Shown: positions 19,815 through 45,032, numbered from the stretch's first letter. The stretch: DNA of 64,000 bases from an uncultured Bacteroidia bacterium (GCA_964352215.1 CAYGRE010000002.1:22353-86352), one strand, 5' to 3'. Notes: generated by a model from the letters alone, not told the origin. Numbers and translations: made by a program.

Positions 19815-19828
19815 TGCACGGCTTCTAA

Positions 19829-23275: not shown

Positions 23276-23318
23276 CTAACCTTACCCGGTTATCGCTGTG
23301 GTGGTTTATATATGAGTA

Positions 23319-23732: not shown

Positions 23733-23929
23733 GGTGTCTACGATTGTTTTGCCTGTACCACTGCACAGACCGTGCCAGAAACTAAAGCTAGCCAAAAAAC
23801 CTGTTTAGCTCAAACCCAATGCTGAAGAGGGCGGTTTGTGATCCCCCAATGCCCAGCAAAAATCTCCATTCCAAACACCTGTCGGATATAATAGACGGAG
23901 ATGGAGTGTTTTCAATCCGGTAGCAATTC

Positions 23930-24025
23930 CCTGGTGCTTGATCAACTTGAAAGTCAATTGCCGGGCGTGTCCCACCGGGTCTCCCAAGCCTAGTGCTTGA
24001 TCAACTTGAAAGTCAATTGCCGGGC
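23930..24025. repeat. 33-37 bp direct repeat with 59-bp period that duplicates the last 11 codons of the M43 protease gene.
   Basis: gtgcttgatcaacttgaaagtcaattgccgggc occurs at 23934-23966 and again at 23993-24025. The second copy encodes the C-terminal ARQLTFKLIKH. Confidence 0.9.
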
Positions 24026-26488: not shown

Positions 26489-26564
26489 AAATCGGGTTAA
26501 TGAAAAGGTTGGTCGTTGATTGATGGCACAATATATGAAATTCAATTCTGAAACCTCAATTGGA

Positions 26565-27194: not shown

Positions 27195-27231
27195 CAGGCA
27201 ATACCAGGTTCAGTGAAGCCGGGAGACGTTC

Positions 27232-27852: not shown

Positions 27853-27859
27853 TTCATCG

Positions 27860-29497
27860 TCAATCTAACTGCAATATACCTGCATAAGAAATCCCTGTCA
27901 ACCTGTGAATATCCCAATTCCAGGTGGTTAAGTCATCGGCATTGAATTTATTGACATCATTATAGCCACAAGCCCTTGCAATGACCCTAATGAGGTCATT
28001 GGAGGCGGTAAGAAAATTGTACAGTTGGCGTGAACTTTTGAGAATTTCCAGGCGGGCACGAAGGTGATCTTTCATAGTAGCAATGCCTACGGGGCAATTA
28101 TTGGTATTACAGGCCCGCATCCCGAGGCAGCCAATGGCTTGCAGTGCTGAGTTAGAAACCGCAATTGCATCTGCCCCCAACATCAGGGCTTTGGCAAAAT
28201 CAGCCGGGGTCCGGAGGCCTCCGGTCACCACCAGGCTCACACCTTTGGCCCCGACCTTGTCGAGGTGACGTCTGGCCCGCGCCAAGGCCGGAATGGTCGG
28301 AACATTGATATTGTCCCGCAATATGGTCGGTGCAGCCCCGGTTCCCCCTCCCCGACCATCAAGAATGATATAATCCGCACCTGCTTCCAAAGCAAAGTCG
28401 ATGTCTGCTTCCACCCGGCTGGCAGCCAGTTTAAAGCCCACCGGAATCCCCCCGGTCAAGGTCCTTACCTCCTGGGCAAAGGCGGCAAAATCTGCAGGCG
28501 TACGGAATTCCTCAAAGGTAGCCGGACTGATCGCAGCCTCTCCTTCGGGAAGATTGCGGACCTTCGCGATTTCGCCAACAACCTTTTCCGCAGGCAAATG
28601 CCCTCCGGTTCCCGTCTTTGCTCCCTGCCCGCCTTTAAAATGAAAAGCCTGGGCCTTCTTCACTTTGTCCCAACTAAAGCCAAACTTTGCCGAAGCCAAC
28701 TCATAAAAATAGCGGCTATTGTTCTCCTGTTCTTCCGGCAACATCCCCCCTTCCCCTGAACAAATCCCTGTTCCAGCCATTTCAGCTCCCTTGGACAGCG
28801 AAATCTTTGCTTCCCGGCTCAGGGCGCCAAAAGACATATCAGAAACGAAGATCGGCATCTCCAGTTCCAAGGGCCGCGCTGCATTCGGACCAATCACCAC
28901 CTTGGTATGGACCTCCTCATGATCCAACAATGGACGCCGCGCCAATTGCGCCGGCAGGAATTGAATATTTTCCCACTTGGGAAGGGTATTCCGGTCGACC
29001 CCCATCGCAGCGGAAGGTCCGTGATGACCGGTCTTGCTGAGACCATTTCGGGCCAGATCCTGAATGTACCGGGTATGGGGCTCGGTATCTTCAGGATGGG
29101 TGTCTGCATAGTCGCCAAGGTACTGGTCCCGGTCAAAGGGCTGCGGATGGGCAACATGAAAAGCACGGATTTCAGCAGCATCTACATACAGACCTCCCTC
29201 ATGCACTCCCCCCTTGAACTTGTGCAAGGCCTCATCATTGTTGTATTCAGAGACACCCGTATCGTAGCGATAATCCCAGTGGTGAACCCCGCACATCAGA
29301 TTGTGCCCATCTATATAACCATCGGACAACAAGGCCCCCCGGTGGTGACAACGACCGTACAATACCGAGACATCCTCTCCAAAACGGACGATGACGAGGT
29401 CGACATTTTCAACCAGGGCATGAGCGGGAGCGAGGTCCTCCAGCGTTGTCCAATCAGCAATCTTCTGAGGTTCAGCCAGTTTCGAATACGGGGTCAT
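27860..29497 (-). CDS. Rieske [2Fe-2S] domain fused to an FMN-binding glutamate-synthase-like (GltB domain-2 family) oxidoreductase.
   Basis: The N-terminus has the Rieske ligands GRCHHRGALLS ... LMCGVHHWDY (CxH ... CxxH). The C-terminal 440 aa match the glutamate synthase FMN/Fe-S TIM-barrel (ALSREAKISL ... SGEGG ... GGTGAAP ... VVTGGLRTPADFAKALMLGADA). Confidence 0.8.
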   Translation of the reverse strand: MTPYSKLAEPQKIADWTTLEDLAPAHALVENVDLVIVRFGEDVSVLYGRCHHRGALLSDGYIDGHNLMCGVHHWDYRYDTGVSEYNNDEALHKFKGGVHEGGLYVDAAEIRAFHVAHPQPFDRDQYLGDYADTHPEDTEPHTRYIQDLARNGLSKTGHHGPSAAMGVDRNTLPKWENIQFLPAQLARRPLLDHEEVHTKVVIGPNAARPLELEMPIFVSDMSFGALSREAKISLSKGAEMAGTGICSGEGGMLPEEQENNSRYFYELASAKFGFSWDKVKKAQAFHFKGGQGAKTGTGGHLPAEKVVGEIAKVRNLPEGEAAISPATFEEFRTPADFAAFAQEVRTLTGGIPVGFKLAASRVEADIDFALEAGADYIILDGRGGGTGAAPTILRDNINVPTIPALARARRHLDKVGAKGVSLVVTGGLRTPADFAKALMLGADAIAVSNSALQAIGCLGMRACNTNNCPVGIATMKDHLRARLEILKSSRQLYNFLTASNDLIRVIARACGYNDVNKFNADDLTTWNWDIHRLTGISYAGILQLD

Positions 29498-30643: not shown

Positions 30644-30805
30644 ATGCGCACACTGATGTTCGGAATGGGAACCGGAGAAATCATGTTGATCATATTGGTC
30701 CTCATTGTCATGCTGGTCGTCATCCCCATGATTCTCGTCGTCATCCTACGGCTGACCGGCAAGCACAAGGACCCAGATGACCGCTATCCCGGACATCGAT
30801 CTTAA
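30644..30805 (+). CDS. Unannotated 53-aa single-pass membrane micro-protein whose start overlaps the upstream stop (TAAATG).
   Basis: It falls below the 60-aa ORF-track cutoff. The translation is MRTLMFGMGTGEIMLIILVLIVMLVVIPMILVVILRLTGKHKDPDDRYPGHRS, a strongly hydrophobic 25-aa core with a charged C-terminus. The ATG directly abuts the TAA of the upstream gene. It lies between the nfeD-like and flotillin genes on the same strand. Confidence 0.45.
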   Translation: MRTLMFGMGTGEIMLIILVLIVMLVVIPMILVVILRLTGKHKDPDDRYPGHRS

Positions 30806-30910
30806 TAACAAACCCGTGCAGATTTCCTGATGAAATCGTAAATTATCGACCGAAATCATCTAGTACGGAATTTACCAGAATATTTAACCATTGCACTTTA
30901 ATCATCCGAA

Positions 30911-33091
30911 ATGCTCAACTCACAACTATTCATTGGAGCGGTGTTTGACAATGTGATCACCTTCGTGATCATCGGCATCGCAGTCGCTATTGTCCTTTCT
31001 CTGGCCCTTGTACTCTCCTGGTACAAGAAAGTCCCTCAAGGAAAGGCCCTGGTCCGAACCGGAATCGGTGGGATCAAGATATCCTTCAATGGCATGATCG
31101 TCATCCCGGTTGCCCACAAGATGGAGATGATGGACATCTCTCTTAAGAAAGTAGAGATTGGCCGTACTGGCAAGGACGGTCTGATCTGTAAAGACAATAT
31201 GCGGGCCGATATCAAGGTGGCCTTTTTCGTCCGGGTCAATCCGGAAAAAGAAGCAGTTGGAAGGGTGGCTCAGACCATCGGGGTATCCAGAGGCTCGGCG
31301 GAAGGAACGCTGACCCAACTGTTTGAAGCAAAATTCTCCGAAGCACTCAAGTCTGTCGGTAAACGCTTCAACTTTGTGGAGCTCTATGACAACCGGGAAT
31401 CCTTTCGGGAGGAGATCATCAATATGATTGGCACCAACCTCAACGGCTATATTCTGGACGATGCCGCCATTGACTACCTGGAGCAAACCCCGATTGAATT
31501 CCTTCAGGATGACAATATCCTTGATTCCGAAGGTATCAAGAAGATCACCGACCTCACCGCGATCCAGCACATTGCTGCCAACAAGATCCGCAATGAAGAG
31601 AAGAAGGTCATCACCCAGCAGGATGTTGAAGCCCAGGAAGCCATCCTGGAGCTGAACCGCCAACTCGTGGAAAAGGAGCAAATCCAGCAGCGGGAAATTG
31701 CTTCCATCACGGCCCGGGAAGAAGCCGAAACCAAGAAGATCCAGGCTGAAGAATTACTGCGCTCTGAGCAAGCCCGCATCCAGACCGAAGAAGAGGTCGC
31801 TATCGCGGAGCAAAACAAGCAGCGTCAGGTCATTGTGGCTCAAAAGTCCAAAGAGAAGACCGAAGCAGTGGAAACCGAGCGCGTCACCAAAGAGCGTGAA
31901 CTGGAGATCAATGAACGGGAGCGGGTGGTCACCCTGGCCCAGATCGAGAAAGAGAAGTCGGTCGAGGAAGAAAAGAAGAATATCCAGGAAGTGATCCGGG
32001 AACGGGTCATTGTGGAAAAGGCCACCGTGGTGGAAGAAGAGAAGATTAAAGACACCCGTGAATTTGCCACCGCTGACCGTTCCAAAAAAGTTGCACTGAC
32101 CAAGGCGGAAGAAACTTCCGGCCAGGAGAAGATCATGGCTGTGATCAAAGCAGAAGCAGATAAGGAAGCGGCTCAGATTGAAGCCCTGCGGAAGATCATC
32201 GAAGCGGAGGCCGCCCTGAAAGCATCTGAGCTGGATGCGGAAGCCATCAAGAGACGTGCTGAGGCCCGGGCCGCCGAAGAAGCTGCCGTCGGTGTCTCTG
32301 AAGCACAGGTCATCGAAGCCAAAGCTATTGCCAGCCAGCGCAAAGGTGAAGCCGATGCCAAAATCATTGAACTTCGGGCCAGTGCCGAAGCCAAAGAGAT
32401 CGAACTGAAAGCGGCGGCCAATGAGCAGGCCGGACTCAAAGAAGCCAACGTGCTTGAACAAACTGCCCTGGCCGCAGCCAAAGGCAAGACCGCCAATGCG
32501 GAGGCGACCGAGCGCGAAGGCCTGGCCGAAGCCCTTACCATCGAGAGCAAGCTGATTGCGGAAGCAAAAGGTATCGAGAAGAAAGCCGATGCGATGAAGA
32601 AGCTCGACGGAGTGGGCAAAGACCACGAAGAGTTCCGCCTCAGGTTGCAGAAAGACAAAGAAGTCGAGTTGGCTCAGATCGGGATCATGGCCGAGATCGC
32701 AGGTGCCCAGGCAACTGTGCTCAGCGAGGCCCTCAAGTCCGCCAATATCGACATCGTAGGTGGCGAAGCCGTATTCTTTGACAAACTGATGAATGCAGTG
32801 ACCCAGGCCAAGACCATTGATGGGCTGGTCAACAAGAGCAGCGTCCTCAGCGATCTGAAGAACAACCTACTCGACGGGGAGGATGGCAATGTGATCGACA
32901 AGGTCAAAGGACTGGTCCAGCAAATTGGGCTGAAGTCCGATGACATCAAGAACCTGAGTATTGCAGCCCTGCTGTTGAAAATGAACGATGCAACCGACGA
33001 CAACAGTGTCAAAGGGGTGATCAACCGCCTCATGAACGCTGCGTGGCAGACAGGCATCGCCGACAAATCAGCAGGTTTGCTCGGACTGTAA
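30911..33091 (+). CDS. Flotillin-family protein (SPFH/band 7 domain, YqiK/FloT-like) with a long Ala/Glu/Lys-rich coiled-coil C-terminus.
   Basis: An N-terminal TM helix (VITFVIIGIAVAIVLSLALVLSWY) is followed by the SPFH domain (KKVPQGKALVRTGIGG ... RADIKVAFFVRV), then about 400 aa of EA-repeat coiled coil (KAEADKEAAQIEALRKIIEAEA ...). Confidence 0.85.
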   Translation: MLNSQLFIGAVFDNVITFVIIGIAVAIVLSLALVLSWYKKVPQGKALVRTGIGGIKISFNGMIVIPVAHKMEMMDISLKKVEIGRTGKDGLICKDNMRADIKVAFFVRVNPEKEAVGRVAQTIGVSRGSAEGTLTQLFEAKFSEALKSVGKRFNFVELYDNRESFREEIINMIGTNLNGYILDDAAIDYLEQTPIEFLQDDNILDSEGIKKITDLTAIQHIAANKIRNEEKKVITQQDVEAQEAILELNRQLVEKEQIQQREIASITAREEAETKKIQAEELLRSEQARIQTEEEVAIAEQNKQRQVIVAQKSKEKTEAVETERVTKERELEINERERVVTLAQIEKEKSVEEEKKNIQEVIRERVIVEKATVVEEEKIKDTREFATADRSKKVALTKAEETSGQEKIMAVIKAEADKEAAQIEALRKIIEAEAALKASELDAEAIKRRAEARAAEEAAVGVSEAQVIEAKAIASQRKGEADAKIIELRASAEAKEIELKAAANEQAGLKEANVLEQTALAAAKGKTANAEATEREGLAEALTIESKLIAEAKGIEKKADAMKKLDGVGKDHEEFRLRLQKDKEVELAQIGIMAEIAGAQATVLSEALKSANIDIVGGEAVFFDKLMNAVTQAKTIDGLVNKSSVLSDLKNNLLDGEDGNVIDKVKGLVQQIGLKSDDIKNLSIAALLLKMNDATDDNSVKGVINRLMNAAWQTGIADKSAGLLGL

Positions 33092-33112
33092 GAACAGTTT
33101 CAGAATTTCACA

Positions 33113-36100
33113 GTGGAAAATACCAATAACATACAACTCGAAGGCGGGGCCTACGAGATCATCCGCAACCGCCTCCTGACCCACGGCACCGAGCTGCGCC
33201 AAAGACTTGGCCAGCTCGATGAAGCCCGCCGGGAGGTGTTCGGATCGATCTCCACCGAACTTCTGGCCACCGACCGGATATCAACTGAAAACAATTGCAT
33301 CGCCAGAGACATCGTCTCTATCGGAGGCAAGTCCATCTTCGGATACAATGTCCAGTTGGGCTTGCGGACCGAGATGCATCTCAAAGATGTCTTTGCAGTA
33401 TTTCACTACAAGGACCAACGCTACCACGAGGACAGCCTGGACTTCATCCGGCATCCACGGTTTGAAGAGGATTTTACCAACCTCTACAAATATTACCGTC
33501 ATACCGTCTTCTCGAAGTTCGCGGTCATCGGTCCACACCTCTATATGGTGTTTCAGATCGGTAAAAGCGTCACCGACATCAAAGCCTTTAAGTTCCTCAT
33601 CACCCCGGAGCAGACCCTCCAATTTGTTGACAGTCGCTCCGAGGCAGAGGTCAGGTATCCCGAACAGCACGAATTCAAATGGGTACGTGCCCACCGGGAC
33701 ATGCACCGGACAGGTCAATTCCCCCATGTATCCATCATGGACAAGGTGTTCGTGGAGACCATGGGCGGAAGCCTGACCATCAAGGTCGAGGACAATACCG
33801 ACTCCGGGCTGGGAATTTACACCGAGGACGTCGACCATAAGGAGCAGTCTCTGGACGACGCGGAAATGTTCTATGCAGATCTGGGCAATATCCTTGTTCT
33901 GAAAATCCGCCCCTTTCAGGAAAAGGATTTTCGCTACATCGCCTACAACGAAAAGATGCAGGAAGCCCGGAGGATTGATACATTGGCGCACAGCTGTGTT
34001 CTCCTCCCCGATAGCCACGGCATCATTTTCGCCAATGGCTATTACCTCCAGACCGGTGAGTACAAGATTTTCCAGACCGGCCTCACCGATCTGCATTTCG
34101 AAAAGCGGATTTCAAGCCCCAATGGTGAAGATTACCTCTATGTATTCTTCAACCAGGACACAGGCTCCTACGTCCTGCTCAGTTACAACCTGATCGCTCA
34201 GAAGGTCGAAGCCCCCATCATCTGCAATGGATTTGCCCTCTTTGAAAATGGCGAGTTGACCTATTTCCGGGCCGAAGTCGAACCGACCAAGCACCACGCC
34301 ATCCAGATCTGGCAGACCCCTTATGTGGGCCTCAATTTCCGACTTCCGGTTTCTGAGGACAACAAGCTGTATAAGATTGGCAACAAGGACATCGTCCGGG
34401 CCATGGCCGAGTGTACCGAGATCCTCACCATTCTCAACAAAGAGGACACCTACGGTGGGCTCTACATCGACCTGGTCAAGCTGAGCGGCAATGTGCTGGA
34501 CAGCTATTACTGGATCGCAGACAAAGACACCTTCCAACTCAACGAACCGCTGAAAGAAATCAGGGAGTCAGCGGAGGGGGCCATTGAAGAGTTTGAGAAA
34601 GTAACCAGGGTACGGAGACACACCCGCGACGAAATGGAACGGGTCAGCCAGGCCGCCGACCACCTCGTCCGCGAGATCAAGCGCTCCATCTTCGAGAATG
34701 TCAACCAATTCGTAAAGATGCTGGCCGACCTCCGCAAGATGCGGGGCGAAGTCATCTCCCTGAAAGAATTGCGGTATGTCGATCTGGAACTCGTGGACCG
34801 CCTGGCAACGGACCTGTCCGAAGAAACCGAACGCCTGTCCCGCAAATGCGTGGAATTCCTACTGCGCGAGGGTGCACTCGCCCCCTACCAGGACAAAGTC
34901 ACCGAAGTCCACGGCGAGATCGACAGCGTCAAAACCGCCGCCGAAGCGGCCCAGGTAGAATTGAAGATCGAGGAGGTCGCCTCTGAACTGGAACTGCTGA
35001 TCGAGATCGTCTCCAATCTCAAGATTGACGATGCCACTCAGACGGCCCGCATCATCGACAGCATCTCGAATATATTCGCCGAGCTCAACCAGGTCCGGGC
35101 CGCCTTGCGCCGCCACAAAAAAGAACTGATGAGCACCGAGGCGGTGGCCGAGTTCAGCGCCCAGCTCAAACTGGTCGGCCAGGCGGTGGTCAACTACCTC
35201 GATGTCTCCGACACCCCTCAGAAATGCGATGAGTACGTCACCAAACTCATGGTACAGGTCGAGGAACTTGAAGGAAAGTTCTCCGAGTACGATGAATTCA
35301 TTGACCAACTCACCGAGAAGCGGGAAGAGATCTACAATGCTTTCGAAGCCCGGAAATTGTCTCTGACCGAAGCGCGTAACAAGCGGGCCTCGGCCCTCTT
35401 CAAGAGCGCAGAACGCATCCTCTCCGGCATCCGCAACCGGGTGGCCCAGTTCGGGGAAGTCACTGAGATCAATGGCTATTTCGCCTCCGACCTGATGATC
35501 GACAAGGTCCGGGACATCGTTGAGAAACTGATGGAGCTGGATGACAATGTCAAGTCCGAAGACCTGCAATCCCGGCTCAAGACCATCCGCGAGGATGCGG
35601 TGCGCCAACTCAGGGACCGCAAAGACCTCTTTGTCGATGGCAAGAATATCATCCAGTTGGGCAAGCATAAGTTTTCAGTCAACGTCCAACCGCTGGACCT
35701 GACCATTGTCCCCAAGGACGACGACCAATACTTCCACCTGAGTGGCACCAATTTTTTTGAGCGCATCCGCAACGAAGACTTCGAAGCCACCCGACCGATC
35801 TGGAAGCAAGAGCTCGTTTCCGAAAGCGAGGAAGTCTACCGGGCCGAATTTCTGGCTTATGCATTCTTCAAAGAAATGGTCGGGGACAGGAAGGGCCTTG
35901 ATGCCTTTGCAAATGCCCCCGAAGCGGAGCAATTGGAGCAACTCCATACCTATATGGGGCCCCGCTACCAGGAGGGCTATGCCAAGGGAGTCCACGACCA
36001 GGATGCCTACGCAATCCTGAACGCATTGCTGACCCTCCATTCCGACATCGGACTGCAACGGTACGCCCCTTCCGTACGGGCCTGTGCCATGCTCTGGTGG

Positions 36101-37996
36101 GAAACCTTCGTTAGCAAATCCGACAAAGCCCTTCTGCAACACCGGCTCAAAGGTGCGGGTTCAGTCCTGAAAGTATTTCCGGATTCCAAAGAATTTGGCG
36201 ACCTGGAAGCAGACATTTCCGAGCTCATCCATCAATTTCAGGAAGCAACCGGCCTCTTTGCCGCGGTATCCCAGTGCCTGGCTGCCGAGTATTTATTTGC
36301 CGAATTGACGCAAAACGACCGCTTTCTCGCTTCCGGCCCGGCCCAGCAGTTGCACCGGGATTTGAACGCATTTCTGAGCCGCAAGTCCTCGGTCAAGACC
36401 TTCCAGGAATCGCTCCGGCAATTGGAAGAGGTACCCGAAGACCGCTATTCGCTGATCTGCAGCTGGCTGACCGCTTATGTAGAAATGGAAGGCAAACCGG
36501 AGGCAGTGGATTATGTCCAGGAAGCCGCAGTGATTCAGTTCCTCGGCGATCAGGACCATTTCCGCACCGTTCCCGGCTCCGTCCATACTGAACTGAAAGG
36601 CCTGCGGGGAGACCATCCTGCCCTGGGAGAAAAAGGCCATTACCGTCTCAACTACAACCACTTCATGGCCCGGCTGGGCAATTACCACCGGGAGACCGTT
36701 CCCAAATTTCACCAATACCACCAGCTCAAGCACAAACTCACCGAAGAGTTCCGGTCTGAGCTCCGCCTCAGTGAGTTCAAACCAAGGGTATTGTCCAGTT
36801 TCGTCCGCAACAAACTGATCGACGAGGTCTATTTGCCCCTGTTCGGCAACAACCTGGCCAAGCAGATCGGCACGGTCGGCGACGACAAGCGCACCGACCG
36901 GATGGGGATGTTGCTCCTCATCTCGCCGCCGGGATACGGTAAGACGACCCTGATGGAATACATCGCCAACCGTCTCGGGCTGATCTTCATGAAGATCAAT
37001 GGCCCCGCGATCGGACACTCGGTGACCGCTCTCGATCCGGAAGAAGCCCCCAATGCTGCTGCCCGCGAGGAACTGCAAAAGCTGAACCTGGCATTGGAGA
37101 TGGGAGACAATATCATGCTCTACATCGACGATATTCAGCACTGTCACCCTGAGTTCCTGCAAAAATTCATCTCACTCTGTGATGCGCAGCGCAAGATCGA
37201 AGGGGTGTACAAGGGCCGTTCCCAGACCTATGACCTGCGCGGCAAACGCGTCTGTGTGGTCATGGCGGGCAATCCTTATACCGAATCCGGCACCAAGTTT
37301 CAGGTACCGGACATGCTGGCCAACCGCGCCGATACCTACAACCTGGGGGATATCATTGGGGAAACGGATACCTACTTCAAATTGTCTCTGGTCGAGAACT
37401 GTCTCACCAGCAACAATGCCTTGCAAAAGATAGCCCAGCGCTCCCACAAGGATGTTTATACCTTCCTGAAAATCGCAGAGACTGACAAACAGGAGGGGCT
37501 GGATTTCGAAGGGAATTATACCCCGGAAGAAGTTTCAGAAATCGTGGCAGTCTTGAAAAAGTTGATGGTGGTGCGGGATGTAATCCTGACCGTCAACCAG
37601 GAATACATCCGCAGTGCTGGGATGGGTGATGAGTTCCGTACGGAACCGGCTTTCAAACTCCAGGGTTCTTACCGGGACATGAACAAGCTGGCAGAGAAGC
37701 TTATCCCCATCATGAACGACCGGGAGTTGAAAGCCATGCTGCTCACCCACTACGAAAGCGAATCTCAAACCCTCACCTCTGGTGCGGAGGCGAATTTGCT
37801 CAAGTTCAAGCAAATGGTGGGTTGGATGACCGAGGAGGAGCAAGCCCGCTGGAACGATATCAAGGCGACTTTTATGAAGAAGCAGAGCCTTCTGGGCATC
37901 GATGCCGGCGACAAATTCGGCCAGGTGATTGCCCAATTGGGGAGTCTGGTGGATGGGATTGAAGGGATGCGAAAAGCAGTGGAAGGACAGAAGTAA
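33113..37996 (+). CDS. Giant (1627 aa) protein with an N-terminal domain of unknown fold, a central roughly 600-aa coiled coil and a C-terminal AAA_5 (MoxR/dynein-related) ATPase domain. It is probably co-operonic with the flotillin gene 22 bp upstream.
   Basis: Walker A is LLLISPPGYGKTTLMEY, Walker B is IMLYIDDIQHCHPEFL, sensor-1 is VCVVMAGNPY, and the Arg finger region is VPDMLANRADTYNL. This order matches AAA_5. Residues roughly 480-1100 have a heptad-rich helical composition. No match to a characterised family could be recalled. Confidence 0.6.
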   Translation: MENTNNIQLEGGAYEIIRNRLLTHGTELRQRLGQLDEARREVFGSISTELLATDRISTENNCIARDIVSIGGKSIFGYNVQLGLRTEMHLKDVFAVFHYKDQRYHEDSLDFIRHPRFEEDFTNLYKYYRHTVFSKFAVIGPHLYMVFQIGKSVTDIKAFKFLITPEQTLQFVDSRSEAEVRYPEQHEFKWVRAHRDMHRTGQFPHVSIMDKVFVETMGGSLTIKVEDNTDSGLGIYTEDVDHKEQSLDDAEMFYADLGNILVLKIRPFQEKDFRYIAYNEKMQEARRIDTLAHSCVLLPDSHGIIFANGYYLQTGEYKIFQTGLTDLHFEKRISSPNGEDYLYVFFNQDTGSYVLLSYNLIAQKVEAPIICNGFALFENGELTYFRAEVEPTKHHAIQIWQTPYVGLNFRLPVSEDNKLYKIGNKDIVRAMAECTEILTILNKEDTYGGLYIDLVKLSGNVLDSYYWIADKDTFQLNEPLKEIRESAEGAIEEFEKVTRVRRHTRDEMERVSQAADHLVREIKRSIFENVNQFVKMLADLRKMRGEVISLKELRYVDLELVDRLATDLSEETERLSRKCVEFLLREGALAPYQDKVTEVHGEIDSVKTAAEAAQVELKIEEVASELELLIEIVSNLKIDDATQTARIIDSISNIFAELNQVRAALRRHKKELMSTEAVAEFSAQLKLVGQAVVNYLDVSDTPQKCDEYVTKLMVQVEELEGKFSEYDEFIDQLTEKREEIYNAFEARKLSLTEARNKRASALFKSAERILSGIRNRVAQFGEVTEINGYFASDLMIDKVRDIVEKLMELDDNVKSEDLQSRLKTIREDAVRQLRDRKDLFVDGKNIIQLGKHKFSVNVQPLDLTIVPKDDDQYFHLSGTNFFERIRNEDFEATRPIWKQELVSESEEVYRAEFLAYAFFKEMVGDRKGLDAFANAPEAEQLEQLHTYMGPRYQEGYAKGVHDQDAYAILNALLTLHSDIGLQRYAPSVRACAMLWWETFVSKSDKALLQHRLKGAGSVLKVFPDSKEFGDLEADISELIHQFQEATGLFAAVSQCLAAEYLFAELTQNDRFLASGPAQQLHRDLNAFLSRKSSVKTFQESLRQLEEVPEDRYSLICSWLTAYVEMEGKPEAVDYVQEAAVIQFLGDQDHFRTVPGSVHTELKGLRGDHPALGEKGHYRLNYNHFMARLGNYHRETVPKFHQYHQLKHKLTEEFRSELRLSEFKPRVLSSFVRNKLIDEVYLPLFGNNLAKQIGTVGDDKRTDRMGMLLLISPPGYGKTTLMEYIANRLGLIFMKINGPAIGHSVTALDPEEAPNAAAREELQKLNLALEMGDNIMLYIDDIQHCHPEFLQKFISLCDAQRKIEGVYKGRSQTYDLRGKRVCVVMAGNPYTESGTKFQVPDMLANRADTYNLGDIIGETDTYFKLSLVENCLTSNNALQKIAQRSHKDVYTFLKIAETDKQEGLDFEGNYTPEEVSEIVAVLKKLMVVRDVILTVNQEYIRSAGMGDEFRTEPAFKLQGSYRDMNKLAEKLIPIMNDRELKAMLLTHYESESQTLTSGAEANLLKFKQMVGWMTEEEQARWNDIKATFMKKQSLLGIDAGDKFGQVIAQLGSLVDGIEGMRKAVEGQK

Positions 37997-38074
37997 TCTG
38001 TATCTTTGCAGCAATAAGCATCTGTAGCACCGAGCATCTGCAGCACAAGAATTTCGAAGCATAAGAAGCGCACC

Positions 38075-38809
38075 ATGTCCGATTCTTCATATTTGATCAG
38101 TGACCCGGTTGTATTGCACAACGCCCTGATTGATGCCCATTCCAAGGCGGATGGGTTAAGGTACAGAGCCTTGTGCGACCAGAATTCAAACTTGATTCAC
38201 AAGCACTTCCCAGCCTGGATGGTGATTCCCTACGCCATCAAGAACGATGAAAACGCGGTGAATGTCTATTCGGCTGCGATTGTGAATGTCGCGGTCCACT
38301 TTGCCATGAAGGGCGATACGCGCCTCATGGACCTGATCAACGGTATCGGAGACGATCCTTCTGTAAAATGGGACGAGGCATTCCACCAGTTCGAGGACCT
38401 GATGAAGAAGTTTGACTTCGCCGCTGCCCGTGACTTGTTGCTCGAGGTGGCATCGGAAATGCGGGAGCTGTCCGGGCCGGCCATTGACTACCGTATACCC
38501 TACGTCCACGAACGCCTGACCTGGTTGTTTTTTCTTTCCGGGGACATGGAATCGGCCGAATTGTACGGACGGGCGGCGCTGATGGGATTCAGAAAGACGA
38601 AAAATACCGAAGGGATATTGACAATCACCCGGCGCCTCGCAGACATCTTCAAAGCAGCGGGCGAATGGGAAAAGTCCCGGCAATGGATCATCCGATTTAC
38701 CAATATCCTACTGCAAAATGGCCGTCAGGAGAATGCAGAGGCAGTTCGCAGGTTACATGGGATTGAGCCCCTGGGAGAAGTGATTCCCCTTTCTGCTTCC
38801 GAAGATTGA
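38075..38809 (+). CDS. Hypothetical protein, possibly helical-repeat or TPR-like, probably the last gene of the flotillin/ATPase cluster.
   Basis: It is on the same strand, 79 bp after the giant ATPase. It has no signal peptide and no recognisable motif. Confidence 0.4.
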   Translation: MSDSSYLISDPVVLHNALIDAHSKADGLRYRALCDQNSNLIHKHFPAWMVIPYAIKNDENAVNVYSAAIVNVAVHFAMKGDTRLMDLINGIGDDPSVKWDEAFHQFEDLMKKFDFAAARDLLLEVASEMRELSGPAIDYRIPYVHERLTWLFFLSGDMESAELYGRAALMGFRKTKNTEGILTITRRLADIFKAAGEWEKSRQWIIRFTNILLQNGRQENAEAVRRLHGIEPLGEVIPLSASED

Positions 38810-38882
38810 CACAAAGAATACATCTTGATTTGCGTGGGAAAATTTCCGATATTCGTAGGTAAGCCAATAAAATTTCTGAGCC

Positions 38883-39098
38883 ATGTTATACGCAGACAAT
38901 AAAGAGAATAAGCCCAAGAAAACCCCTGCTGGTCGCGTCAACACTCCTGAGGACGCCCAAGGGCCTTCATTTGCTCCCCCGGAACTCTTCAAAGACGACG
39001 AAGACAAAGAGGATGAAATGGAGGATCATGGTGGACTTTCCGCTACGGAAAAAGAGAAGAAGAAAGCACTCGAGAAGAAGGAAAGAAAGGGACTTTAA
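38883..39098 (+). CDS. Small, highly charged hypothetical protein (71 aa).
   Basis: This is an ORF only. Its composition is KEKKKALEKKERK and it contains the motif GPSFAPPELF seen in neighbouring leader-like ORFs. Its coding status is uncertain. Confidence 0.25.
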   Translation: MLYADNKENKPKKTPAGRVNTPEDAQGPSFAPPELFKDDEDKEDEMEDHGGLSATEKEKKKALEKKERKGL

Positions 39099-39152
39099 GT
39101 CTCAACCCTGTCTTTTGTGCCCCAATTTGTCGAGTAAATAACCCCATCCATC

Positions 39153-39986
39153 ATGTTTGAGCCAACGCATCAAAACACGAATCAGAGTTCGCACGAAAAC
39201 GAAGGCAATGTCCTTCAGGCCAAGTCTGCGTCTCCCCCGGCATTTTCAATTGCCGCATCACCAATGCAGCAGACGTCTGATGCTTCTGGTGGTTGCTCGC
39301 TTTGTGAACCTATGCAATTGACTGCGCTGAGCAGTTTTCCTGAAGGCACGAGCGAAGAGCAGATGATGGGCGGTGGCAATAACAAGGATGGGCAACCCGT
39401 ACAACGCAAAGCAGACAACAGTGCTGGTGGCAGTGGCGGCGATTCGCCTATGCAACTCACCGCTGCTGGTTCAGGTCCACTTCAGCTTAGAGGTGGCGCG
39501 ACCGTGGGAACCCTTTGCGTCAAAACCAACGTAGTAAATGAAGGTTTGACAGCCGGGCATGCCTGGCTCTCCTATACACCTGTCAGTGGTGGAGAAGAAA
39601 CTTATGGCACCTGGGGTAACCGCACCCCAATCGGACTGCACAGAAATATCGAAGTAGGTATGGGGGGCAAAGCAACCCGTTGCACCGAGATCGATGCTAC
39701 GGACAAAGCCAACCTGGACTCCTTCGCCTCCTCCAACAACGATTGGGGTTTGTTCAACAACTGCTCTTCCTTCGCAGCACGCGGCTGGCTGGCCGTAACC
39801 GGTGAACACCTCAACTACACTTCCGCTGGCATCCCTAATCCGAGCAAGCTCGGTGAAAGCATCATCGCGGCTGGTGGAACCCTCTCACCCTCTGGTACGG
39901 GAGGCTCAAGTGACAGCTCAGGAAGCTCTTATGGAAGCAGCTCTGCCAACAGCTCTGTAACCAGCTCCTACAATTCCTCCATGTAA
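39153..39986 (+). CDS. Putative polymorphic-toxin or eCIS-type effector-like protein: a leader region without signal peptide carrying QRK/PMQL motifs, a central putative His ... Cys hydrolase-like domain, and a Ser/Gly-rich C-terminal tail.
   Basis: There is no signal peptide. The N-terminal 110 aa are low-complexity, with SPPAFSIAASPMQQ, EPMQLTA, PVQRKADNSAGGSGG and SPMQLTAAG, resembling the xxQRK leader regions found N-terminal to DUF4157/eCIS cargo. The central GHAWLSYTP ... TYGTWGN ... NNCSSFAARGW gives a conserved His ... Cys order reminiscent of permuted papain-like (LRAT/NlpC) folds. The tail is SGTGGSSDSSGSSYGSSSANSS. Confidence 0.4.
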   Translation: MFEPTHQNTNQSSHENEGNVLQAKSASPPAFSIAASPMQQTSDASGGCSLCEPMQLTALSSFPEGTSEEQMMGGGNNKDGQPVQRKADNSAGGSGGDSPMQLTAAGSGPLQLRGGATVGTLCVKTNVVNEGLTAGHAWLSYTPVSGGEETYGTWGNRTPIGLHRNIEVGMGGKATRCTEIDATDKANLDSFASSNNDWGLFNNCSSFAARGWLAVTGEHLNYTSAGIPNPSKLGESIIAAGGTLSPSGTGGSSDSSGSSYGSSSANSSVTSSYNSSM

Positions 39987-40031
39987 TTCCGGTATTTCTC
40001 CGAAGTACCTGACGCAATAACACAGATCACA

Positions 40032-40538
40032 ATGTCTGTTTTCAAAGACTTGATCCCGCACCGTTTGCTCTATGAAGTAAACAAGCACATCGATCAAAAC
40101 AACCTCCAGGATGCTACCAGTCAGCTGGTCTCCCTATTGGAAGCTTTCCCCTACTTTGCCCCCGGATACAATGTTCTGGGTTACCTCTATGCCAATCAGT
40201 TCAGTGATCCGCGCAATGCCATTCCATGCTATGAAAAAGCACTGGAAACCGACCCCAACTATCCCCCTACCTATTTCAACTTTATCGTCACCCTCAATGC
40301 GGTCGAACAACATGGCAGAGTGCCTGAAATCGCAGAAAAAGCGCTTCAGGTAAAGGGGGTTGATCCGGGTAAAATTTATTACGGGCTGGGAATGAGCAAG
40401 GAACTTGTCCGGGAATATGCTGCTGCCAAAATGGATTACCTGAAAGCGATCAGACATTCAGTGGTAGACGTTGAGATCAATGAATACCGCAAAGCAGTGC
40501 AACGCTGTGATCTGAAATTGTCCATCCCCGCATCGTAA
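40032..40538 (+). CDS. TPR-repeat protein, a candidate immunity or partner protein for the upstream toxin-like gene.
   Basis: The TPR-like segments are YNVLGYLYANQFSDPRNAIPCYEKALETDPNY and IYYGLGMSKELVREYAAAKMDYLKAI. It lies 46 bp downstream of the toxin-like gene on the same strand. Confidence 0.4.
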   Translation: MSVFKDLIPHRLLYEVNKHIDQNNLQDATSQLVSLLEAFPYFAPGYNVLGYLYANQFSDPRNAIPCYEKALETDPNYPPTYFNFIVTLNAVEQHGRVPEIAEKALQVKGVDPGKIYYGLGMSKELVREYAAAKMDYLKAIRHSVVDVEINEYRKAVQRCDLKLSIPAS

Positions 40539-40660
40539 ACCTTAGGCTAATTTACTTCGTATTCAAAAGTTGAAAACCTTCCTTACCTGAGGTTGGTGGA
40601 CTTCCTATCCCGAAATGGGAAATATACGTACCTTTAGATGAACTCATTTTCGAATAATAA

Positions 40661-41023
40661 ATGTTACTGATGCTGTTATTATCATTCCTTGGATCTCGTG
40701 GTGTCACCTTTGCGGAGATGGCTCCTCCACCTCAGTTGACATTGACAGAACATAGCCTCAGTCTTCAGGTCTCTAATTCCAGAGAGCATTCCTCCCTGGT
40801 CATTACCAAAATCGAGTTTTCCAGAGATGAAGATTGCGTGATCCTAAAAGGATGGCAAAAACTTGCTCCTGTGAGTAAACACGATGGCCACTTCGAAGAG
40901 CCATTCGAAAACCTCGACCTTACCTATGAGACAGCTTCTCAGGTCAAGTACTATTGGGAAGATCCTAATGGGAACCGCACCCAAATAGAACTGGAACCAC
41001 AAACCGCAGCTCCTGAGGAATAA
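40661..41023 (+). CDS. Small secreted hypothetical protein.
   Basis: It has a hydrophobic N-terminus, MLLMLLLSFLGSRGVTFA. This is an ORF only. Confidence 0.35.
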   Translation: MLLMLLLSFLGSRGVTFAEMAPPPQLTLTEHSLSLQVSNSREHSSLVITKIEFSRDEDCVILKGWQKLAPVSKHDGHFEEPFENLDLTYETASQVKYYWEDPNGNRTQIELEPQTAAPEE

Positions 41024-41226
41024 TACCCACTTGCTCATCATCGGTAATCCCTTCCGATTAGGTCCTTGGCTATGAGCTCTCTTCCTACCATCGCATTGGT
41101 CTGGGAAAATAAATCATTCATCGAATCTGCGGGCCTGGCCTGAGGGGAAAGTAGTACTTATGTACTGAACAATGAGTAATTCATAATCTTCCAACAGAAT
41201 ACCGAAACAAGCTTTAGAATACCAGA

Positions 41227-41254
41227 AGGCCGCCGAAAGGCGGTCTCTTTTTTT
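41227..41254 (+). terminator. Isolated Rho-independent terminator that may end a small RNA or a long 3' UTR.
   Basis: The stem-loop ggccgcc-gaaa-ggcggtc is followed by TCTTTTTTT. It lies about 200 bp downstream of the nearest plus-strand CDS. Confidence 0.5.
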
Positions 41255-41805
41255 GGGGTTGACCTCGCATTTGAGAAGCGGATTTTGGTGCAACTGCCAA
41301 TCAGGAAGGGAGGCAGACATTTGAGAAAGCTGAAAGGAGTGCGGGCTTTGGCTGCATCTGATACAAGCGGGATGCTGGTCGAGCCACCCCCAATCACCAC
41401 AAAATAGACGCTGGTTAAGCGCAATCGGAGATTGGGGAACTTGACTAGAGAAACAGCAGAAACCAGGAAAGGGTTTCTTCTGTGGAATTACCTGACGATT
41501 TCTGAGGGATTTGATTTTTGCGGGGAAATGATGAAGGTCCGGATGCTCAAACCTGAGCGTCCGGACCTTCAAGGTTCGAGCATCCGTACCTCCAACCTTG
41601 ACAGTTAGGAGGGAACAGGTATTCTACTTGAGACCTGAATATCCGAGCCTGCCGAGGGCCGACCTATTAGGGTCCGGCCCCTCAGATTTGACACTCTTGA
41701 CCCTCATAGGTCGAAGCTTGAGCCCGGCAAATTTGAGGGTAGGGAGGGGAAAGGGTTTATGCTGCCAACACGGGCCTGCCTGGCAAATGACCATCTTCCT
41801 TTATG

Positions 41806-41930
41806 GTCGGGACCCTCTCCCCGAGCCGGTTTCGACCCGGAAAAGAGACGGTCGGGACCCTCTCTCTGTGACGGTTTGGACCCGGAAAAGAGAGGGTCCG
41901 GACCCTCTCTCCTTGAGGCTTGTTCGCCGC
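41806..41930. repeat. 45-bp tandem repeat (about 2.6 units), each unit containing the perfect palindrome gagagggtccggaccctctc.
   Basis: The units are ggtcgggaccctctccccgagccggtttcgacccggaaaagagac, ggtcgggaccctctctctgtgacggtttggacccggaaaagagag and a partial third. Confidence 0.8.
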
Positions 41931-41978
41931 ATCAATGACGGTCCCAACCGTAAAGGTTTGACACTCTTGCTTGTCAAT

Positions 41979-42022
41979 GGGAGACACTTCCGACCCTCAT
42001 TGGAGACACTCCCGACCCTCAT
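41979..42022. repeat. 22-bp direct repeat x2 (gagacacttccgaccctcattg / gagacactcccgaccctcattg).
   Basis: Two adjacent copies differ at one position. Confidence 0.8.
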
Positions 42023-42469
42023 TGATTCGGCATGTTTTTCTCAAATTGCTTTCTAATTCGCTTGCAATTACTGGATGCTGTTGGATACTTGATACCCTGC
42101 AAGGAGTTTGCTGCCACATGAGTGTAATCTCGGTGGTCTTGCTACTACTATGACCGAGCAATGTTTGAATAAATCAAAGATCGGTTCCTGCCCCAAACAA
42201 ATAGGTAGCAAAAGCGGGCTGCCATTCCATAAAATAGCTTCTTAGATCCGGCAGGATCGTCTTACTCAGAAGAGTATAGCGATCACCAGCAAAGCGACCT
42301 GAGAACGGTCTTAACACTTATCAAAAGTAACTTGAGACACCAGCTATAGACCTTCTCGAGTAACAGAGCTGGTAACTAAGAAGCACTGAATCTGATACCA
42401 AGGCAGGTATCTTAAAGTGGTCGAAAAAGGGGATAAATATAGTAATGCTGGAATCAAAAATCTTGAACC

Positions 42470-43099
42470 CTACTTACCATAATTGTCCTGAAGCCCCTCC
42501 CCCCGGAGAATTTTCTCCCGGCATTTTTCAATCCTTGCCAACCGGGTTTGGGATTGCTTCGCAGCGGAAAAATAGAGGATATAGCCTCTCTGCCGCCCAG
42601 GTGTCAATCCCTCAAAGGCGGCTTTCAAATCCGGATCACCCTCCAATGTCTCCAGTAATTCTTCAGGAACAGGCTCAGGGTTCTTCTCAAATTTTACTTT
42701 TTGCCCCGCCTTTTCCAAATCCACCGCCTCATGCACATACGCTTTCAATATGTCTTCCATCTCCAGGATGTCGCTGACCTGGGTAAACCGGGCCTGGCGG
42801 ACAGCCTGAGAATTCTCCCCCGGGGCGACCAATATCTGGTTTGGGTCTTTCATCAGAGCACCTTTAAAGAAAGCAATCACCGCATATTCCTTAAAAGCCG
42901 TCACCAAAAGGACATTCTTATTCTGAAAGGTGTAACAGGGCTGCGACCATTTGAATTCTTCCGTCAATCCATAAGCGAGCACGATCCTTCTCAAATGCTG
43001 CAACTCCTCTGACCAGGTATGGACTTTGCATTGCGGCGTTCGGTACAAGGAACAGCGTCCGCAACCTTCTGATAAATAAATGTCCACTTTGGGATTCAT
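42470..43099 (-). CDS. YdhG/DUF1801-like N-terminal domain plus YdeI/OmpD-associated family C-terminal domain protein.
   Basis: The start was set at MNPKVDIYLSEGCGRCSLYRTPQCKVHTW (typical DUF1801/YdhG N-terminus). The C-terminus GRQRGYILYFSAAKQSQTRLARIEKCREKILRGEG matches the YdeI/OmpD-associated domain. Confidence 0.6.
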   Translation of the reverse strand: MNPKVDIYLSEGCGRCSLYRTPQCKVHTWSEELQHLRRIVLAYGLTEEFKWSQPCYTFQNKNVLLVTAFKEYAVIAFFKGALMKDPNQILVAPGENSQAVRQARFTQVSDILEMEDILKAYVHEAVDLEKAGQKVKFEKNPEPVPEELLETLEGDPDLKAAFEGLTPGRQRGYILYFSAAKQSQTRLARIEKCREKILRGEGLQDNYGK

Positions 43100-43288
43100 G
43101 CTGGTATCTATTATTAAGTAAAGGTCGCCGATGAATGCTCTTGTTTGGGTCCCAAAGTTAACCAATTGGTTTCATTGCCGGGGTTTGAAATTCTTTGTCT
43201 TTTGGGTTTGAATGACAGAAAAAGTGTATATTGCAAATAGCATTTGGACTATCCAGCCAGCACACCTCATAGATACAACCAACTCAAG

Positions 43289-43649
43289 ATGGAAAAGACG
43301 GCCGAACAATCACATGCCTTGGACCAACAAAGTGAGCACAGCCCGGGAAGATCAATGTCTCCCCCTCCTTTCCAACTCCAAGCCAATTCAGAAGATTCTG
43401 GTGAAAAATCGGAAGAGAATTGACCACATGCAATTCACAGCATCAGCTCTTGATATGAAAGTAGGGACAGAGTTCGGTGCCATTTCCTGGGGCTATCAAT
43501 ATGATGAGACCAAAGAAATCTATACTGAAGAAACCCCGCAGCTTCAAGATGCAAAATCGGATAGAATGCAGGGTCGGGACCGTGCAGTAGGCGTTTGGAA
43601 TAAGGATGTTGCCCAAGGGGATATCGACAAGGTACCGGTTTCAGAATGA
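43289..43649 (+). pseudogene. Probable frameshifted paralog of the effector leader region (first frame 43289-43423, continuing in another frame to 43649).
   Basis: The first frame reads MEKTAEQSHALDQQSEHSPGRSMSPPPFQLQANSEDSGEKSEEN*. The continuing frame reads ...DHMQFTASALDMKVG.... Together these mirror SPPAFSIAASPMQQ ... EPMQLTALS of the 39153 protein but are split across two reading frames. Confidence 0.35.
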
Positions 43650-43650
43650 T

Positions 43651-44274
43651 ATGCTCAGAGGATTTCCAGTCCTGGTATTCATCTTCGGCACCTTCTTAAC
43701 TATTGGATGCTGTCAAAATGGTCAATTGGCCAACGATGGGGAAAATATGTCACAGAAAAATATCAATGAGATCGCGGAAATCCTGAAAGGCATGCTTGAA
43801 GAGTCCCACCAGTGCTATACCATTGGCTGTTTTGATGAAACTGAGCGGCTTCGTGGATTGGTGAAGGACTTCGAGAAGCCATGGCAATACTTTCAGCCCA
43901 TTGAAAGTTTTTTCCTCTTTGAGGCCACTCCTGACCTCATTGAATCCGCTGACCGGTCAGTTCTTGCCGCATCCTATAGTAGTGCATTGATGAAATTAAC
44001 CTCTAATTGGTGGGGCCCTCCCGGAAGTCCGGATGGTGCCGCTGCCGACCACCTGCTTGCAATCCCTAATATCACTTCGGACCTCATGCCTCTGCTAAAG
44101 GTCCAAACCCCACTTTCATATCACGGCAGTGAGATCTCCACCATGAATGAAATGTTCGGATGGACGGTGGCAGACCTGGCAGGAGGATTCATCGCTGAGT
44201 TGAGAGGGGAAGCTTATCCCTTCCGCGAAGAATTGGATGTGCGTATTCTCTATCAAAAAGGGCTTCTTGAATAA
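43651..44274 (+). CDS. Hypothetical lipoprotein.
   Basis: The start was set at MLRGFPVLVFIFGTFLTIGCCQN (lipobox). There are no recognisable domains. It may belong with the disrupted upstream ORFs. Confidence 0.4.
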   Translation: MLRGFPVLVFIFGTFLTIGCCQNGQLANDGENMSQKNINEIAEILKGMLEESHQCYTIGCFDETERLRGLVKDFEKPWQYFQPIESFFLFEATPDLIESADRSVLAASYSSALMKLTSNWWGPPGSPDGAAADHLLAIPNITSDLMPLLKVQTPLSYHGSEISTMNEMFGWTVADLAGGFIAELRGEAYPFREELDVRILYQKGLLE

Positions 44275-44436
44275 GCATGGTCCAGCCTTGGATCATGTCT
44301 AAAAGTAATTGGGTTTGGCTCGTGTGAAGGTCCAGACCAGTCCGGCAGAACATCATCAACAGAAACACAAATATGCCATAGGAGCCCTGGAAGAGGGTTT
44401 TGGTTCATAATCCGCGTGTACAGGGGTGACAGCACG

Positions 44437-45032
44437 CGGGTCCAGACCTGCGGGTTCACGGGTTCAGACCCTCGGATTCGAGGGGCCAGACCTGTGGATT
44501 CGCGGGTTCAGACCCGTAGATTCGAGGGTCAAGACCCGTAGATTCGCGGGTTCAAACCCGTAGATTCGCGGGTCCAAACCCGTAGATTCGAGGGTTCAAA
44601 CCCGTAGATTCGAGGGTCCAGACCCGTAGATTCACGGGTTCAAACCCTCGGATTCGCGGGTTCATACCTGTGGACTCAAGGGTTCAGACCCGTAGATTCG
44701 CGGGTCCAGACCCTCGGATTCGCGGGTCCAAACCCTCGGATTCGCGGGTTCAGACCCGTAGATTCGCGGGTTCAAACCCGTAGATTCACGGGTTCAAACC
44801 CTCGGATTCACGGGTCCAGACCCGTAGATTCACGGGTTCAAACCCTCGGATTCGCGGGTCCAGACCCGTAGATTCACGGGTCCAAACCCTCGGATTCACG
44901 GGTCCAAACCCTCGGATTCACGGGTCCAGACCCGTAGATTCACGGGTCCAAACCCTCGGATTCACGGGTCAAGACCCGTAGATTCGCAGGTCCAGACCTG
45001 CGGCTTCGCAGGTTCAAACCCGTAGATTTCGG
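44437..45032. repeat. Minisatellite of about 27 tandem copies of a 22-bp unit (consensus cgggtYcaRacccgtagattcg) between convergent genes. Each unit is self-complementary (gacccg-N8-cgggtc).
   Basis: The units are directly adjacent, with no spacers. Variation is confined to about 4 positions (gcgggt/acgggt/agggt; tt/tc; cag/caa; ccgtag/cctcgg). There are stop codons in all frames. Confidence 0.9.

Follow-up and report, generated by a model that had tools for sequence, protein, structure and literature searches.

The window analysed here is a 64,000-nucleotide stretch of DNA from an uncultured Bacteroidia bacterium (GCA_964352215.1 CAYGRE010000002.1:22353-86352). Positions 39153-41023 of its plus strand most plausibly hold a three-gene toxin cassette, encoding a candidate toxin, a tetratricopeptide repeat (TPR) protein and a small protein (Table 1). 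The original prediction, which described the first two of these genes as a toxin-immunity pair, was correct as to both open reading frames (ORFs), which are present with ATG starts on the plus strand, and as to the position of the TPR gene just downstream of the toxin gene; their spacing, given as 46 bp, measures 45 nt. The 277-aa protein has an identical copy in a public collection (P0001), and the toxin and TPR genes are both called on independent Logan contigs. The terminator-like hairpin beyond the third gene is likely to be the end of the co-directional gene string, as a match to the consensus only, in a count not above the shuffled expectation.

Table 1. Positions of the cassette genes and of the sequence features within and beyond them (numbered from the first nucleotide of the window).
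Feature	Position	Strand	Description
Toxin gene	39153..39986	+	ATG ORF, 277 aa; leader, predicted Cys-His hydrolase domain, Gly/Ser-rich tail
Disordered leader and linker	39153..39482	+	aa 1-110; six hydrophobic-Q-basic motifs
SPPAFS leader motif	39231-39248	+	within leader aa 1-110
SSFPEG leader motif	39330-39347	+	within leader aa 1-110
Q-L-R-G-G motif	39483..39497	+	aa 111-115, just N-terminal to the domain
Permuted papain-like catalytic domain (predicted)	39498..39875	+	aa 116-241
Putative catalytic His136	39558-39560	+	in GHAWLSY, aa 135-141
Putative catalytic Cys204	39762-39764	+	in NNCSSF, aa 202-207
Gly/Ser-rich C-terminal tail	39876..39983	+	aa 242-277
TPR gene	40032..40538	+	ATG ORF, 168 aa; cytoplasmic TPR protein, probably accessory (chaperone/adaptor candidate)
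Small gene	40661..41023	+	120 aa, beta-rich, hydrophobic N-terminus; candidate cognate immunity protein
Terminator-like hairpin	41227..41246	+	8-pair stem with 6 G-C pairs, then a T-run; CTTTTTTT

No structural domains of extracellular contractile injection systems (eCIS) or of T6SS were detected among 39 ORFs scanned across the 64 kb, as had been noted from the sequence. PADLOC returned no defence-system match for the cassette, Rfam returned no match in 38000-45000, the GC content of the cassette is not distinct, and viral contigs scanned with the toxin and TPR alignments yielded nothing useful. Two large ORFs (1,659 and 1,626 aa), whose size had suggested that they might be DUF3686 ATPases, were identified by BLAST and Pfam as T9SS-secreted beta-helix and PKD proteins, which rules out that identity; the window contains only one DUF3686 ATPase. 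A sister genome (GCA_041565275.1; L036), whose assembly shows synteny with the window (73-84% nucleotide identity), was used for comparison. The ATPase block is missing there, while the 244-aa and 71-aa genes that flank it remain, and the block is likewise absent beside the two other Bacteroidota cassettes described below (L004 and L007). A functional link between ATPase and cassette was rejected on these grounds, and the block (30792-38062) represents an insertion that has nothing to do with the cassette. The two upstream genes (244 and 71 aa) were also considered as cassette members, and were discarded because they have no homologs near other cassettes.

A word-indexed search identified 78 homologs of the toxin; in 58 of these a PF13699 domain (DUF4157, which Pfam now names eCIS_core) precedes the matched region. 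An exhaustive profile search returned 1,062 cluster representatives with an E cut-off of 1e-3, of which 458 remained at 1e-10. In the alignment of the 78 homologs the domain spans ∼125 residues, and the His and Cys residues that had been called invariant-looking are in fact invariant in all of these close relatives (His136 and Cys204), together with Trp138, a T-Y-G-T-W-G stretch, Glu167, Trp198, the NNC[AS]SFAARGW surroundings of Cys204, Glu218 and Pro230. Among 106 diverse family members the His and the Cys are the sole invariant columns, a result far beyond chance. An AF2 model of the domain (pLDDT 92, pTM 0.87), in which Cys204 caps a helix and His136 starts a strand, presents a papain-like alpha+beta fold with the His-bearing strands preceding the Cys-capped helix, and so bears out the permuted papain-like fold that had been guessed from the order of these residues. 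The invariant residues and the modelled fold together argue for catalysis via Cys204 and His136.

The closest structural match of the domain is TseH, a remote one at 13% identity; Foldseek ranked the same proteins first, without significance (none below E 0.09). A profile built from 18 family members and compared with all PDB sequences at E up to 10 gave only chance matches to menin. The window toxin has no Pfam, NCBIfam or PADLOC match, no Pfam model covers the catalytic domain in the 106 family members, and searches with Peptidase_C97, Peptidase_C92, LRAT, NLPC_P60 and Amidase_6 gave the domain no membership in any of these curated families by sequence. Given the lack of a significant Foldseek match, of a PDB relative detectable by profile, and of Pfam coverage, the domain is a distinct, unannotated family within the permuted papain-like superfamily.

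The genes encoding homologs of this domain are found in several delivery contexts. In the literature DUF4157 is treated as part of the eCIS core and as a toxin marker (PMC8213781), and DUF4157 proteins are placed, as cargo, in the tube lumen, where AlgoCIS Cgo1 and Cgo2 have been located (PMC8894135). The genes for the DUF4157-fused homologs P0033, P0066 and P0073 lie within eCIS loci. The fused gene of L008 and L010 is placed directly between a WHD+AAA ATPase gene and the Pvc16/sheath/tube genes, and in L009 the homolog follows the sheath, Pvc16 and ATPase genes and precedes those for the tube and baseplate. A further homolog (P0028) is encoded beside the eCIS locus of a Saprospiraceae MAG, alongside other DUF4157 cargo, and a Methanothrix locus contains three DUF4157 cargo genes in a row with different C-termini, one of which is the toxin domain. 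Homologs thus lie in or beside eCIS loci in L005, L008, L009, L010 and L012; the window copy is not so placed. Distant family members are RHS/teneurin-like proteins, as long as 2,684 aa, that end in the domain, which begins right after the DPxGL core-end motif. The delivery modules joined to the domain include DUF4157/eCIS_core, the RHS/YD shell and Fil_haemagg_2, and it also occurs in leader-only and stand-alone forms; the fusion of one toxin domain to different delivery modules is a feature of polymorphic toxins. The domain is a C-terminal module of DUF4157 eCIS-locus proteins and of RHS/YD-repeat toxins. Most homologs being DUF4157 proteins (encoded, where the loci were looked up, in eCIS loci) and the distant ones RHS toxin C-termini, it is best regarded as a toxin or cargo domain, in agreement with the original reading.

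The protein encoded in the window carries this domain behind a leader. As anticipated, the 277-aa protein lacks a signal peptide: its N-terminus is polar and contains no hydrophobic segment, the highest 10-residue Kyte-Doolittle mean within the first 34 residues being 0.71, compared with 2.86 for the product of the 40661 gene. The low-complexity leader with QRK/PMQL-type motifs that had been described is also present, residues 1-112 consisting to 79% of G/S/P/Q/N/T/E/K/A/D and containing six motifs of the form [PV][MLV]Q[QLRA][TKR]. Its proposed resemblance to leaders of eCIS-associated cargo is supported by the motif PPxF[QS]L, common to the window toxin and a DUF4157 cargo protein encoded in an eCIS locus (L005:2375, a 1,226-aa DUF4157-nuclease cargo of a Saprospiraceae locus); here SPPAFSIAASPMQQ of the window aligns with TPPPFQLNATAPIQQK of the cargo. 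The first ∼45 residues of these two proteins follow a common scheme, in which a polar, H/Q/N/S/E-rich start precedes PP[PA]F[QS][LI] and then [PA][IML]Q[QRK][KQ]. PPxF[QS]L is likewise found in the L004 and L007 toxins, whose N-termini have the same leader pattern as the window toxin. Scanned for PPxF by regular expression, the six frames of the window gave only three occurrences, two of them in leader-like ORFs.

In AlgoCIS, loading requires a disordered N-terminal region and DUF4157 is dispensable (bioRxiv 10.64898/2026.05.27.728243), which makes a leader-only cargo plausible; neither the window toxin nor its neighbours have a PF13699 (DUF4157) match or an HExxH motif. Loading sequences are reported to be system-specific (bioRxiv 10.64898/2026.05.27.728243), so the PPxF[QS]L and hydrophobic-Q-basic motifs common to the window leader and L005:2375 cannot by sequence alone establish what the leader does. 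These likenesses support the presence, ahead of the toxin domain, of a leader of the type found in injection-system cargo.

Two further motifs, [QK]x[ET][ST]SFP[ED] and Q-x-[RK]-G-G, accompany the toxin domain; six other DUF4157 proteins from the same loci have neither. The second of these (Q.[RK]GG) lies exactly 24 aa ahead of GHAW in ∼70 of the 78 homologs. The corresponding Q-L-R-G-G segment of the window toxin has low pLDDT in the AF2 model, and stand-alone and RHS forms of the domain start 3-4 residues past this point. Q-x-R-G-G is possibly a processing site just before the domain, at which the protein may be cleaved. The Ser/Gly-rich tail was correctly recognized from the sequence (86% disorder-promoting residues over aa 242-277), and is conserved in eCIS-type homologs.

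Which of the downstream genes encodes the immunity protein was addressed by comparing 19 toxin loci. A family of small proteins (∼100-125 aa) is encoded directly downstream of the toxin in 16 of the 19, in eCIS, RHS and stand-alone contexts. In L004 and L007 the homolog of the window gene at 40661-41023 (34-36% identity) is the third gene, after the TPR gene. A hidden Markov model (HMM) built from these three Bacteroidota copies matches the gene directly downstream of the toxin in L005, L009, L015, L016 and L019 (E 1e-13 to 1e-18), and a slightly broader profile also matches those in L008, L010, L013 and L017. The ORFs directly downstream of three RHS toxins (L038-L040) and one stand-alone toxin (L037) are homologous to each other, and each is the top match of the small-protein profiles in its own locus. 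Taken singly, these four matches are weak (E 6e-5 to 4e-2); hhalign relates the RHS-type partners to the eCIS and Bacteroidota partners with a probability of 88.9% (E 2.4e-6). Of the 16 loci, 12 are assigned at E 1e-13 or better, and four more weakly. The small protein is missing from three loci: the Methanothrix array, one short contig and the locus of a very distant member in Eubacteriales. Among the database matches of the small protein, at least 12 of 27 are on contigs equal in length to toxin-bearing contigs.

Lipoprotein signals are found in the partners of L004, L038 and L039, and the window protein has a hydrophobic N-terminal stretch (the 10-residue mean of 2.86 given above), suggesting that it is probably exported in this organism; the eCIS-locus copies have no export signal. 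No relation of the small protein to a known immunity fold was detected. A small downstream gene that tracks the toxin domain and not the delivery module is characteristic of polymorphic toxin modules, and this description fits the gene at 40661-41023 and not the TPR gene. An adaptor or chaperone would be expected to track the delivery system, whereas constant association with the toxin domain, whatever system delivers it, is the signature of an immunity protein. The small protein is therefore a better immunity candidate than the TPR protein, a role that we infer from the computed co-occurrence.

The 168-aa product of the second gene is a TPR protein, as had been proposed: it scores 28.7 bits with TPR_8 (Pfam cut-off 25.7), a PDB search with its profile finds consensus TPR proteins (E 3e-26), and it is a canonical TPR protein with three or four repeats. 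Its orthologs (33-40% identity) occur only in the L004 and L007 cassettes, at the same position and with unrelated flanks, and both of those found adjoin a toxin homolog, contrary to the outcome that would have refuted the original prediction. Together with the window, this places a TPR ortholog in three of the 19 toxin loci, all of them Bacteroidota cassettes without DUF4157. When metagenome contigs were scanned with the TPR alignment, the matches were all generic giant TPR proteins, and none of them lay close to a toxin homolog.

The original prediction took the TPR protein to be the immunity protein, and the two genes (toxin and 40032-40538) to form a complete effector-immunity module. The closeness of the two genes, the conserved position in cassettes whose flanks differ, and the fact that both proteins are cytoplasmic by sequence, and hence could meet, agree with this proposal. 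We nevertheless consider it quite unlikely, as immunity proteins normally track the toxin domain whatever the delivery module, as the small protein does, whereas the TPR gene is absent from 16 of the 19 loci, including all eCIS-embedded and RHS-type ones, carries no export signal, and gave the metagenome result just described. The sister genome also counts against it. There, 311 nt stand in place of the 1.6-kb toxin and TPR region, comprising a remnant of 41 toxin residues (aa 156-196, 76% identity), with neither His136 nor Cys204, and a short TPR fragment; the TPR gene has thus decayed together with the toxin, whereas the small gene is intact (76% identity, dN/dS 0.11). This pattern fits the retention of an orphan immunity gene after joint loss of toxin and TPR genes, and provides an argument of moderate weight, weakened by the fact that the toxin fragment is as conserved as the intact genes, so that the loss was probably recent.

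The TPR protein is, in our assessment, probably accessory. Type III secretion class II chaperones and T6SS effector adaptors are proteins of ∼170 aa with three or four TPR repeats. Such small all-TPR chaperones and adaptors are encoded beside the secreted substrate, and bind an extended, unfolded segment of it. By analogy, and on the evidence of three cassettes, the window protein is best explained as a chaperone or adaptor that would bind the leader. It differs from these secretion chaperones in showing no homology to them beyond the generic TPR fold, and the eCIS papers cited here describe no TPR component in loading.

Taking these observations together, we favor, with moderate confidence, a cassette encoding an injected Cys-hydrolase toxin, a small immunity protein and an accessory TPR protein. 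The product of the first gene would be a cargo toxin with a disordered leader of the type by which proteins are targeted to extracellular contractile injection systems, followed by the Q-x-R-G-G boundary motif, the Cys-His hydrolase domain and the Gly/Ser-rich tail. Cys204 would most likely serve as the nucleophile and His136 as the general base, cleaving an amide or ester bond of a component of the target-cell envelope. The cytoplasmic TPR protein would most likely bind the unfolded leader, and keep the toxin or hand it over for loading, a role proposed to be needed in this cassette because the toxin lacks DUF4157. The product of the third gene, probably exported in the window organism, would neutralize the toxin as its cognate immunity protein. 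To be delivered, the toxin would need an injection machine encoded beyond the window; otherwise the cassette would be an orphan. Of this picture, computation provides the fold, the two invariant residues, the occurrence of the domain in eCIS and RHS toxins and the association with the small protein, from which catalysis, substrate, immunity, the part played by the TPR protein and the route of delivery are inferred.

The substrate cannot be read from the fold, which includes amidases, deSUMOylases, depalmitoylases and acyltransferases. For TseH, toxicity is seen only when the protein is in the periplasm; TseH also lyses cells that have been permeabilised, and TsiH, from the downstream gene, neutralises it (PMC4453574). 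This periplasmic toxicity, in conjunction with the lipoprotein-type partners of the family, points to a target in the envelope, and most likely to peptide bonds of peptidoglycan; our best guess is the peptide stem, as proposed for TseH, the main alternative being an acyl bond of membrane lipid. Under that alternative the domain would be a lipid-directed acyl hydrolase or acyltransferase (of the LRAT/PLAAT or MARTX RID type), not a peptidoglycan amidase, and would target membrane phospholipids or lipoproteins at either face of the inner membrane. The cytoplasmic location of the partners in eCIS loci makes it a serious alternative, and we rate it as possible rather than probable.

We regard as very unlikely the proposal that the domain is not a toxin at all, and instead a maturation or self-processing peptidase of eCIS (cutting, for example, at Q-x-R-G-G), with the small protein serving in assembly and the window copy left as a stray remnant. 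Such a role could account for the DUF4157-fused genes of L008 and L010, which directly separate the ATPase from the cap/sheath genes, and for a conserved, disordered G-G motif just before a PPPDE-like (deSUMOylase-like) fold. It is at odds with the occurrence of the domain at the ends of RHS/YD toxins, with DPxGL directly before it and a small partner, often with a lipoprotein signal, after it, a standard toxin-immunity signature that is unrelated to eCIS assembly; the domain is moreover one of three interchangeable cargo C-termini in Methanothrix, and is found in cassettes with no injection genes nearby.

A more elaborate version of the favored toxin-immunity reading would make the locus a ‘portable cargo kit’, a self-contained cassette for contractile injection systems in which the TPR protein grips the leader motifs and replaces DUF4157. 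Q-x-R-G-G, which is like the C-terminal tail of ubiquitin and SUMO, would here be a processing site, at which either the PPPDE-like domain itself or a target-cell protease would act, freeing a toxin whose N-terminus would match that of the stand-alone and RHS-released forms. With all of its parts taken jointly, we find this version rather doubtful.

Most predicted contractile-injection cargo has no known activity, and immunity genes for such cargo have rarely been identified (PMC8213781, PMC11297309). The analysis defines a widespread, unannotated Cys-His toxin domain (∼1,000 cluster representatives) common to eCIS cargo and RHS toxins, accompanied by a candidate immunity family and putative catalytic residues. 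It also brings to light leader-only versions without DUF4157, located in small cassettes away from any injection locus and with an added TPR gene. These cassettes offer a starting point for understanding the handling of cargo that lacks DUF4157, and could aid the design of loading tags for engineered injection systems.

Among characterized systems, the cassette resembles the TseH-TsiH effector-immunity pair of the Vibrio cholerae T6SS (PDB 6V98), TseH being the closest structural match of the domain. In contrast to that likeness of structure, identity to TseH is only 13%, and the family profile detects neither TseH nor any other PDB chain at E up to 10; the delivery context also differs, being eCIS/DUF4157 or RHS for the window family and PAAR-linked T6SS cargo for TseH. 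PPPDE/DeSI (Peptidase_C97), YiiX/YaeF (C92), LRAT/PLAAT and CLN5 are permuted papain-like enzymes related to the domain at the level of the fold, yet the Pfam models of these families match neither the window protein (E up to 0.1) nor the 106 family members (E up to 0.01), and the Trp-rich conserved motifs GHAW and TYGTWGN are specific to the toxin-domain family. The domain is therefore not a member by sequence of the TseH, PPPDE, YiiX, LRAT or NlpC/P60 families.

Most homologs have the architecture of eCIS DUF4157 cargo (PF13699, EATs, AlgoCIS Cgo1/Cgo2), namely a disordered N-terminus, DUF4157 and a variable C-terminal toxin (PMC8213781, PMC8894135). The window protein differs from these in having neither DUF4157 nor HExxH and in having no eCIS genes within 64 kb, and thus lacks two defining features of eCIS cargo, the DUF4157 domain and location in an eCIS locus. 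In RHS/YD-repeat polymorphic toxins, the distant family members form RHS tips after DPxGL, with a small partner ORF directly downstream; the window gene has no RHS shell, and release of its domain, if any, would proceed via Q-x-R-G-G and not by RHS autoproteolysis. With its toxin domain and small downstream partner, the cassette by analogy works like an eCIS or RHS polymorphic toxin-immunity module.

The toxin cassette is immediately preceded, on the same strand, by genes for a 244-aa product with weak TPR-like matches and a 71-aa product rich in Lys and Glu (Table), both of which are kept in the sister genome (GCA_041565275.1) at a dN/dS of about 0.10; homologs of these two genes were not found adjoining other toxin cassettes. 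Further upstream, a 7.3-kb block (30792-38062) is missing in the sister genome, and contains the gene for a 1,627-aa protein with DUF3686, DUF7902 and AAA ATPase domains, together with an upstream gene whose 726-aa product gave no family match. PADLOC returned nothing significant for this gene pair, and no mention of DUF3686 was found in the literature searched. Four other segments of the window (9497-15364, 19275-20362, 21900-23318 and 23801-27879) have no counterpart in the syntenic sister contig, and their products include a 1,626-aa PKD/CHU_C T9SS protein, a protein with a Fic domain, and an M43 peptidase that bears a T9SS sorting domain; this region of the window is an insertion/deletion patchwork.

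Features flanking the toxin cassette (window coordinates)
Feature	Position	Remarks
726-aa protein gene, then 1,627-aa ATPase gene	30911-37996	21 nt between
244-aa gene and 71-aa gene	38075-39098	directly 5' of cassette, same strand
45-nt tandem repeat	41805-41912	2.4 copies, 87% matches
22-nt repeat	41980-42024	2 copies
44-aa leader-like ORF, MEKTAEQSHALDQQSEHSPGRSMSPPPFQLQANSEDSGEKSEEN	43421-43423 (stop codon)	
74-aa ORF	43428-43649	frame differs from preceding 44-aa ORF
Gene 3' of 74-aa ORF	43651-44274	lipoprotein-like signal at product N-terminus

Downstream of the cassette lies a gene-poor stretch that contains both the 45-nt and the 22-nt repeats. What appears to be another leader-like ORF, the second in the window, occurs at 43289-44274, an interval that may represent a split or frameshifted cargo gene followed by an exported partner.

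The toxin domain also occurs as a stand-alone copy with the small partner, its candidate immunity protein, at locus L037 (1-6853), where the pair is preceded by genes for a 2,393-aa protein and a CHAT-protease protein and by an ORF of 130 aa, so that its setting here is a different one, resembling that of conflict systems. In the Methanothrix locus encoding an extracellular contractile injection system (L012, 5171-7476), a conserved ORF of ~85 aa (LELNIEELVLNGFPGMDRDRLA...) lies 5' of two among the three DUF4157 cargo genes, as if this ORF formed a repeated unit associated with cargo.
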